A DNA stretch of 50,552 bases from Escherichia phage ADB-2. A model generated the notes under the pieces. That model worked only from the letters and a program-made list of their open reading frames with translations. It had not been told where the DNA came from and ran no database searches. A program made the position numbers and the translations under genes. Positions within the stretch are counted from its first letter, which is position 1. The number at the start of each line of letters is the position of its first letter. The stretch is taken from sequence record NC_019725.1; one strand, given 5' to 3'. Below, one piece after another: positions 46,529-48,216 of the stretch.

Positions 46529-46705
46529 ATGAAACGAGTTAAGTGCATCCGAAATGATTCCAAAACTCTTCCATTCCGCGTAAATCAGATCTATAGTGTT
46601 GGTTATGATTTCGGTGGTGGATTGTTTGAGATTTACGATGGCAGAGGTTCAACAATCCAAGCCCCTCTGAACGGTCATTACCTGGAATTTATTGAGCTAG
46701 ATTAA
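46529..46705 (+). CDS. small hypothetical protein (58 aa)
   Basis: ATG with AGAGGG RBS; below ORF-track cutoff. Confidence 0.4.
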   Translation: MKRVKCIRNDSKTLPFRVNQIYSVGYDFGGGLFEIYDGRGSTIQAPLNGHYLEFIELD

Positions 46706-46823
46706 CAATATCATTCATAACCTTACGGGCTGGCATGGTTTACATGCTGGCCTTTTTGCGTTGTATCAAGTAAACTTGAAGGTTAAAATCAACTCACTTG
46801 TTCAAAAAATATATGGTGATATT

Positions 46824-47039
46824 ATGAAAGAATTTTTAACAGCGGCTACGTCAAGCACGGGCGGCGCTTCATTGGTAGGGGCGGCGACAGGGCAACTTTA
46901 TATTGCTGGCGCTACATTCATTTGCTTTCTGCTTTTTGGTGCATGGGGCGCATACTGGAAGTATCGTGACAGTAAGGCAATTCAGGAAGCGTTAAACGAT
47001 GGCGATCTAAATAAGGCGCTTAAGATTAGGGGGAGATAA
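46824..47039 (+). CDS. putative holin
   Basis: 71 aa with hydrophobic segment [21 protein letters not shown] and charged C-terminus; immediately upstream of endolysin. Confidence 0.5.
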
Positions 47040-47527
47040 TGAGTTTAAAAAATAACGTTATAGGCGCATCGATCGGGGCCGCTTTGACGTTGACACCTAC
47101 TCTACTGGAACGAATCGAAGGTATAGAGTACGAGGTGTATTACGATATCGCCGGAGTACCTACCGTATGCAGCGGAATAACCGGGCCTGACGTAATACCT
47201 GGTAAGAAATACACTAAGCGAGAATGCGATGCATTGCTGATAAAACATATCGGAGTCGCTCAGCGATACGTTGACAAAAAGGTGAATGTTGATATTCCGG
47301 TAACGATGCGCGCGTCACTGTACAGCTTCACTTTCAACGTTGGTACTGGCGCGTTCGGATCTTCTACAATGCTTAAGCTAATAAATCAGAGTAAGCACAA
47401 GGAAGCGTGCAATCAGTTATGGCGATGGGTATACTACTACAACCCAAAAACCAAAAAGCGAGAAGTGTCTAGAGGACTCAAGAACCGACGCGCTGAAGAA
47501 TACGCGTATTGCGTTAAGGAATTATGA
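47039..47527 (+). CDS. endolysin, GH24 lysozyme with N-terminal signal-anchor-release (SAR)-like domain
   Basis: N-terminal Gly/Ala-rich weakly hydrophobic segment [17 protein letters not shown] followed by catalytic E...D...T pattern ([22 protein letters not shown]). Confidence 0.75.
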
Positions 47528-47927
47528 TGAAACTGAAGAAAATGTGCATTGCGATTACAGTGGCTGTTGGTGTTATTTCTCTATCCGGTTGCTCGACGGC
47601 ATCTGCCTGAGCGGTTTAATCGGATCTAAACCGGAAGTTACAGCACAAATCGGAGAGGAGAACACAAAGCAATTAGCAGGAGTAACCGCAAAATCCGAAG
47701 ATAAGCGAGATGTTAAAGTTGAGAAGTCCAACGTGGGAAAGATTGACTCTTCCTTGAAGAAGTCAATTGAAGTGTCAACCATTCAGGCTAACACGGTTAA
47801 CGCTGAAAGCATCACAGTAACAAAACCGGAAAACTGGTACGATGCAATTGTAGGATGGACTCTCGTTTTCATTGGCCTGTTGCTGGTTTATTTTTCAATT
47901 CGTAAGGACGAAAAAAAGGAGGCGTAA
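47524..47927 (+). CDS. unimolecular spanin candidate: lipoprotein signal + C-terminal membrane anchor (frame disrupted ~47605)
   Basis: [22 protein letters not shown] lipobox signal in one frame; remainder in -1 frame ends with hydrophobic [15 protein letters not shown] + KDEKKEA; last gene of lysis cassette. Confidence 0.5.
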
Positions 47928-47942
47928 GCCTCCTTTTCTTTT
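47910..47942. terminator. bidirectional terminator between convergent genes
   Basis: AGGAGGCGTAAGCCTCCT hairpin flanked by A-run upstream and T-rich tract downstream. Confidence 0.7.
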
Positions 47943-48156
47943 ATGCATCAGCCCACATGTAACTTTCGTTCGTGAGTTTTGCGTATTCGCGAACTTCAAT
48001 TTCACAGGTGTCTCCGTACATCTCAGCGACCTTTTTCTCATTCGCTACCGCTGATTCCTCGGTCCATCCATCAGCTTTGCTGTATAGGGTAGGAATTTCA
48101 CTGCTAGTGCCGTCAGAGTGATTGTAAACGCGAACTACTAAAAATTTGTTAGCCAT
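47941..48156 (-). CDS. hypothetical protein
   Basis: 71 aa from ATG with GAAGGA RBS; downstream of element copy 24. Confidence 0.45.
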   Translation of the reverse strand: MANKFLVVRVYNHSDGTSSEIPTLYSKADGWTEESAVANEKKVAEMYGDTCEIEVREYAKLTNESYMWADA

Positions 48157-48216
48157 GATGATTTCCTTCATGTCGTTTCATTTCGATAAAACAAATATAC
48201 CCGATACGAGATCGGC

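Follow-up and report, generated by a model that had tools for sequence, protein, structure and literature searches.

The T1-type lysis cassette in Escherichia phage ADB-2, with the probable sequencing error in its unimolecular-spanin gene

The lysis genes of Escherichia phage ADB-2 occupy positions 46824-47927 (+) of the window (the whole stretch of DNA that was analysed, 50,552 nt, sequence record NC_019725.1). To judge by homology, they form an ordinary, previously described T1-type cassette of holin, signal-anchor-release (SAR) endolysin and unimolecular spanin (u-spanin). In the deposited sequence the frame of the spanin gene is broken by the absence of a single base. This break is best read as an error of sequencing or assembly rather than as a biological feature. 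We put at roughly 90% the probability that ADB-2 carries the T1-like three-gene cassette with a spanin break that stems from a CCC run undercalled by Ion Torrent; the actual phage most likely encodes an intact, 134-residue orthologue of T1 gp11.

The defect itself is not a new observation. Kongari et al. (2018) described the ADB-2 gene B508_00385, adjoining the holin (B508_00375) and endolysin (B508_00380) genes, as 75% identical to T1 gp11 and lacking a lipoylation signal, and put the missing signal, through which the spanin was missed, down to a probable sequencing error (PMC6139136). The same reading of the same gene in the same genome is thus already published. The gain for biology is small, the arrangement being the textbook T1 one and the spanin defect having been noted by Kongari et al. 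The practical worth lies in curation: at least 17 apparent single- or double-base deletion errors are present in the ADB-2 record (JX912252 / NC_019725), where they split or fuse approximately 10 genes, essential structural genes among them. Whoever takes this genome as the reference in surveys of spanins, in pangenomes or in phage-therapy safety screens should allow for these errors.

Three overlapping genes of the T1 type

ADB-2 is a T1-like Tunavirus (Drexlerviridae). Its closest relatives in the phage collection that was searched, from which ADB-2's own record is absent, are the records of Tunavirus ISF002, CLB_P3, LeonhardEuler, SH6 and T1, at ~88-97% identity. The three lysis genes overlap on the same strand in the order holin, SAR endolysin, u-spanin, coupled by the stop/start overlaps TAATG and ATGA. 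The spanin gene is the terminal gene, directly following the endolysin gene and itself followed by a terminator hairpin; the order in T1 is the same. The homologies shown here mark the three genes as orthologues of T1 gp13, gp12 and gp11, respectively. Spanins of the T1 gp11 family are known to occur in cassettes with pinholins and SAR endolysins (PMC6139136, PMC11447400). The initial annotation had delimited a lysis cassette at 47039-47927; the holin gene lies just outside that interval, yet belongs to the same cassette.

The holin gene (46824-47039, +) encodes 71 amino acids, and the overlap of its stop codon with the start of the SAR endolysin gene (TAATG) pairs the two genetically. The protein is identical in amino-acid sequence to the T1 holin, HOLIN_BPT1 (exact-sequence look-up). 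Only PHROGs recognises it (phrog_2877, holin, E=1.9e-38); searches of Pfam and NCBIfam returned nothing above threshold. Kyte-Doolittle (KD) hydropathy yields a single clear transmembrane domain (TMD), strongly hydrophobic, at residues 25-41 (KD 1.94). The 20-residue segment ahead of this domain consists, by hand count, of 75% Gly, Ala, Ser and Thr, and its KD value of ~0.84 lies under the TMD threshold. The ADB-2 holin resembles T1 gp13 in its length of 71 residues, in a first segment rich in Gly, Ala, Ser and Thr, in the strongly hydrophobic TMD that comes after it, in a charged tail at the C-terminus and in its partnership with a SAR endolysin. The assignment of T1 gp13 as a pinholin is a proposal that takes phage 21 S68 as its model. 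The T1-family holin has been proposed to possess two TMDs and to be a class II pinholin (PMC11447400), and the holins of this family are described as (proposed) pinholins that are paired with SAR endolysins (PMC6139136, PMC11447400). Pinholin-type control of ADB-2 lysis may reasonably be inferred.

The endolysin gene (47039-47527, +) encodes 162 amino acids with a phage lysozyme domain (PF00959 Phage_lysozyme, E=3.8e-33; phrog_7, endolysin, 2.8e-50), and its exact sequence carries the database name 'endolysin [Escherichia phage ADB-2]'. The initial annotation had seen in it the Gly/Ala-rich N-terminus of a SAR-type protein, and the composition agrees: residues 7-23 are 53% Gly, Ala, Ser and Thr with a mean KD of 1.68 (the SAR domain of phage 21 R has 59% and 2.29), and are less hydrophobic than the signal peptide (2.19) or the TMD (2.38) of the ADB-2 spanin. 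The segment matches the profile of a SAR domain. The closest solved structures are 3HDE and 3HDF (E=7e-34 to ~1e-33), which show the SAR endolysin R of phage 21 (R21) in its inactive and active states, and 4ZPU, RrrD of E. coli (~1e-33). The alignment with R21 starts at residue 11 of the ADB-2 protein, so that the homology reaches into the hydrophobic SAR segment. The catalytic triad E-x8-D-x5-T is conserved, E27, D36 and T42 aligning with E35, D44 and T50 of R21. With phage 21 R (3HDE/3HDF) and DLP12 RrrD (4ZPU), the ADB-2 endolysin shares a GH24 lysozyme fold and a weakly hydrophobic helix, rich in Gly and Ala, at the N-terminus; conservation of three of the four Cys positions is confirmed in the alignment. 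It differs from phage 21 R in its C-terminus and in a shorter cytoplasmic stub and SAR segment, the latter ending at approximately residue 23 instead of approximately residue 30. The SAR segment is devoid of Cys, and regulation by conformational change, as in R21, would therefore be expected, rather than disulfide caging of the kind that controls P1 Lyz. All this supports the placement of the ADB-2 protein as a probable SAR endolysin of the phage 21 R type. T1 gp12 is itself listed as a 'predicted SAR endolysin' (PMC11447400).

A spanin gene in two frames

In the deposited sequence the spanin gene falls into two pieces. The 5' piece (47524-47610, +) encodes 28 amino acids, its start overlapping the endolysin stop codon (ATGA). 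It has a basic n-region, a hydrophobic core and the lipobox LSGC, with Cys23 as the residue to be lipidated and Ser24 at position +2, and it ends at a premature TGA (47608-47610) that the deletion produces. Lipoproteins that are without Asp at the +2 position after the lipidated Cys do not fall under the Lol-avoidance rule and are sorted to the outer membrane; having Ser24 rather than Asp at this position, the spanin would be sorted there. The 3' piece (47607-47927, +), which is read in another frame, encodes 106 amino acids comprising a periplasmic domain, a C-terminal TMD and a basic cytoplasmic tail. Its hydrophobic helix is 17 residues long (KD 2.38) and is followed by the tail RKDEKKEA; the TMD takes up approximately residues 106-126 of the repaired protein. 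Past residue 24, no Cys occurs before the TMD is reached; periplasmic Cys is absent from all 58 u-spanins (PMC6139136).

When the one C that the relatives possess is restored, lipobox and TMD, which stand on separate frames in the deposited sequence, come together in a single polypeptide. This repaired protein, 134 residues long, shares 79% identity with T1 gp11 from end to end (78.4% over 134 amino acids in tblastn) and 96% identity with the proteins annotated as u-spanins in LeonhardEuler and phiD2-2. Again PHROGs alone recognises it (phrog_1804, 'Rz-like spanin', 9.8e-48), with nothing above threshold in Pfam or NCBIfam. The deposited spanin ORF matches T1 gp11 with 75% identity (79 of 106 residues). 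The likeness to gp11 extends to the core of the signal peptide, which is identical, the LSGC lipobox with Ser at +2, the absence of periplasmic Cys, the C-terminal TMD with its basic tail (RK.EKKEA) and the terminal place in the cassette, overlapping the endolysin stop codon. The differences are scattered substitutions in the periplasmic domain (e.g., GSKPE in ADB-2 and SDSQD in T1) and the splitting of the frame after codon 28 by the 1-nt deletion in the ADB-2 record. By sequence, then, the gene once repaired is an orthologue of T1 gp11.

LSGC is the lipobox of wild-type T1 gp11 (PMC6139136). The same paper presents gp11 as the prototype u-spanin, able to complement the lysis defect of lambda RzRz1. 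Its anchors are given there, and in a second paper, as an N-terminal lipid in the outer membrane and a C-terminal TMD in the inner membrane, and the periplasmic domain of gp11 or its family as predicted to be beta-rich (PMC6139136, PMC7830690).

The two pieces also invite comparison with the two-component spanins, for which lambda Rz/Rz1 is the model. Rz/Rz1 serves the same role, joining the inner membrane to the outer one through the murein. It consists, however, of two polypeptides instead of a single chain, has no sequence similarity to u-spanins, and spans the periplasm with coiled coil whereas the u-spanin domain is predicted to be beta-rich; u-spanins are without intermolecular disulfides. 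A lipobox on one ORF and a TMD on the next could be taken for a degenerate pair of this kind, a lipoprotein of the outer membrane (o-spanin) and an inner-membrane partner (i-spanin). That interpretation was rejected and strains belief: the mature lipoprotein would have only 6 residues, the second piece carries its TMD at the C-terminus while an i-spanin has it at the N-terminus, and the joined sequence is collinear with the single chain of gp11. The second piece, moreover, has neither an ATG start nor an export signal of its own, and the GTG at which it is annotated to start reads signal-peptide DNA in the wrong frame.

The GenBank/RefSeq version of the gene shows what the break does to annotation. 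It begins at this GTG and runs from 47544 to 47927, encoding a 127-residue 'Rz-like spanin' (B508_00385, AFV50972.1/YP_007112742.1). Its first 21 residues translate the signal-peptide DNA out of frame, which makes the database protein a chimera, and it has no lipoprotein signal. The exact-sequence look-up found this truncated 127-residue protein recorded on one contig only, and a neighbouring ORF of 383 residues likewise matched ADB-2 exactly and uniquely.

The missing base

The lesion lies at 47606-47607 (+), where ADB-2 has CC and its aligned relatives have CCC: GCATCTG-CCTGAGC in ADB-2 is opposed by GCATCTGCCCTGAGC in ISF002, LeonhardEuler and phiD2-2. When the interval 47530-47700 was used as a megablast query, the matched stretch was longer than the aligned part of the query by exactly one base in 53 of 53 phage records. 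The initial annotation had claimed a lipoprotein signal with the lipobox LSGC, a 1-nt frame break and, beyond it, a C-terminal transmembrane helix, and had read these together as a T1-type unimolecular spanin; each of these elements is borne out by the translations and alignments above, and the interval that it had marked for re-sequencing, 47590-47615, encloses the missing base.

The CC allele appears to be confined to ADB-2. A 24-mer carrying the deletion had zero matches in IMG/VR, in JGI metagenome contigs and in GTDB genome contigs, and a 29-mer had zero matches in IMG/VR; as a positive control, a 25-mer of the intact allele was found on 6 IMG/VR contigs. At the protein level, the junction residues A28-L29-S30 are invariant among the relatives.

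Taken at face value, the deposited sequence, in which the break is after all present, would make ADB-2 a natural or laboratory-acquired u-spanin null mutant. Its only products would then be a 28-residue pre-lipopeptide (6 residues when mature) and possibly a C-terminal fragment that is not exported, and the host would have to be lysed without a spanin, through shear or at low concentrations of divalent cations. Such a phage would be viable. Lambda phages defective in Rz/Rz1 still form plaques under many laboratory conditions, and the tolerance of spanin loss in the laboratory means that a true spanin mutation need not be lethal, unlike breaks in structural genes. Approximately 13% of surveyed phage genomes are without an identifiable spanin (PMC6139136). 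Against these considerations stand the restriction of the CC allele to ADB-2 (it is found neither in the 53 relatives nor in IMG/VR, the JGI metagenomes or GTDB) and the invariance of the junction.

A second way of accepting the break as genuine is to suppose that it is bypassed by programmed recoding: ribosomes would shift into the -1 frame, or transcription would slip at the C-run, to yield a short lipopeptide together with the full-length spanin. What speaks for this is geometry, the stop codon standing right after the C-run and the downstream frame being open to the normal stop. The sequence, GCA UCU GCC UGA, contains no slippery heptamer, however, and a run of two C residues is too short for transcriptional slippage. 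The arrangement occurs in no relative (53 of 53 are intact), so that conservation gives no pointer to a selected site, and the break is already accounted for by a genome-wide excess of deletions. Programmed frameshifting or slippage was rejected on these grounds.

Deletions across the ADB-2 record

A sequencing error is favored by the company that the spanin deletion keeps. Whole-genome comparison was used to list the indels that are private to ADB-2, i.e., those that distinguish it from ISF002, LeonhardEuler and CLB_P3 together. There are 19. Seventeen of them have a length that three does not divide, and every one of these is a deletion of 1-2 nt, with not one insertion. Twelve of the 17 adjoin an identical base (e.g., GG[G], TTTTTT[T] and [C]CC). 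The same analysis, performed on each relative as a control, yields 7-8 such indels, insertions and deletions mixed, for the most part clustered in a few short stretches. The ADB-2 sites are dispersed at approximately 2797, 7317, 8977, 12323, 13529, 15476, 16108, 21432, 22187, 23592, 27940, 30227, 30805, 41385, 47606, 48213 and 50386.

The consequences for reading frames are seen when long ORFs of the relatives are aligned with ADB-2 by tblastn: 11-12 adjacent frame switches are encountered, as opposed to 1-2 between relatives. The affected genes were named by matching the LeonhardEuler tblastn coordinates to the LeonhardEuler annotation. They specify a Dcm-like methyltransferase (broken at ~2794-2797), the terminase small subunit (~13529), the portal protein (~16108), the major tail protein (~23592), a minor tail protein (~27940), the J-like tail tip protein, which is broken twice (~30227 and ~30805), a DNA helicase (~41385) and the u-spanin (47606, +); at ~22187, two small genes of the structural region are fused.

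Undercalling of homopolymers is the characteristic error of Ion Torrent sequencing. The reads for the ADB-2 genome came from the Ion Torrent PGM (200-bp kit) and were put together by Newbler 2.6; the phage had been isolated from plaques and purified in CsCl (PMC3622963). A phage so obtained cannot truly have lost all of the broken genes together. The deletions-only pattern looks like, and is best understood as, the mark that systematic undercalling has left in the Ion Torrent/Newbler assembly, so that the annotation of the ADB-2 record is unreliable at these sites. With private deletions distributed across the record and structural genes among those broken, the spanin break falls into place as one case of a record-wide error process.

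Beside the tolerance of spanin loss, two further points weigh against this reading. The first is coverage, which amounts to ~900x (computed from the read total of 45.5 Mb given in PMC3622963); depth of this order should suppress random errors but not systematic ones. The second is that 5 of the 17 private deletions lie outside homopolymers.

The same record bears on the null mutant. The 16 other private deletions of 1-2 bases include several in genes that are indispensable for a viable virion, and to accept the CC allele as genuine is to make an extra assumption where the error process of the record already accounts for the break. We accordingly regard a genuinely spanin-null ADB-2 as unlikely, and consider it even less likely, indeed barely conceivable, that the phage makes full-length spanin by unrecognised recoding at GCC-UGA. 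Should ADB-2 be spanin-null all the same, it would offer a ready-made system for the breaching of the outer membrane by a SAR-endolysin/pinholin phage that has no spanin.

Proposed course of lysis

With an intact spanin, which the sequencing-error reading restores, lysis by ADB-2 can be pictured along the lines of the phage 21 and T1 systems, to which the steps that follow are owed by homology. The endolysin would be exported by the Sec system, and its weakly hydrophobic SAR helix at the N-terminus would then tether it, inactive, in the inner membrane. Triggering of the small holin, a proposed pinholin, would depolarise the membrane, upon which the SAR helix would exit from the bilayer, allowing the endolysin to refold and to degrade the murein. 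The u-spanin would meanwhile be anchored at both ends, with the lipid on Cys23 in the outer membrane and the C-terminal helix in the inner one, and the loss of murein would free it to disrupt the outer membrane or to bring about its fusion.

Flanking elements and variation among relatives

The cassette lies between two hairpins. The downstream, terminator-like hairpin (47914-47937, +) consists of AAAAGGAGGC-GTAA-GCCTCCTTTT, a stem of 10 pairs (5 of them GC), after which comes a T-run. The hairpin overlaps the stop codon of the spanin gene and looks toward a convergent ORF at 47941-48171 (-). Its location between convergent genes, with an A-run upstream and a T-run downstream, suggests that it could serve as a bidirectional intrinsic terminator. 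The other hairpin, at 46727-46753, is a strong, terminator-like one (11 pairs and a T-run); it comes after a conserved ORF of 58 amino acids (46529-46705) and lies ~70 nt upstream of the holin start. A consensus scan found no sigma-70-like promoter between this hairpin and the holin gene. Read-through and a non-consensus late promoter are candidates for the source of lysis-gene transcription.

The end of the spanin gene varies among the relatives. The segment 47905-47927, which contains a run of 7-8 A residues and GGAGGC(G) ahead of the spanin stop codon, is variable, and the encoded C-termini read ...DEKKEA, ...DEKKGG or ...RKD (128-residue forms, on more than 30 contigs), or else continue as long run-ons. 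ISF002 (NC_041995.1) has a private 1-nt deletion of its own at ~1037, in the stop codon/terminator hairpin of the spanin gene (GGAGGC[G]TAAGCC; equivalent to ADB-2 47925-47927). As a result, its annotated 'Rz-like spanin' runs on to 175 residues, with a tail of ~41 residues that is translated through the terminator. A 176-residue, E. coli-derived member of the cluster has a similar run-on that arises from a different shift, in the A-run. The variable tail may be either an indel hot spot, in coding sequence that doubles as the stem of a terminator, or a recurrent sequencing problem.

In the phage collection, between 6 and 21 records labelled as Campylobacter phage, or as having Campylobacter jejuni as host, match the T1-type lysis region or the spanin. 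For sequence of the Tunavirus kind the host label is odd, and contamination or mislabelling may lie behind it.
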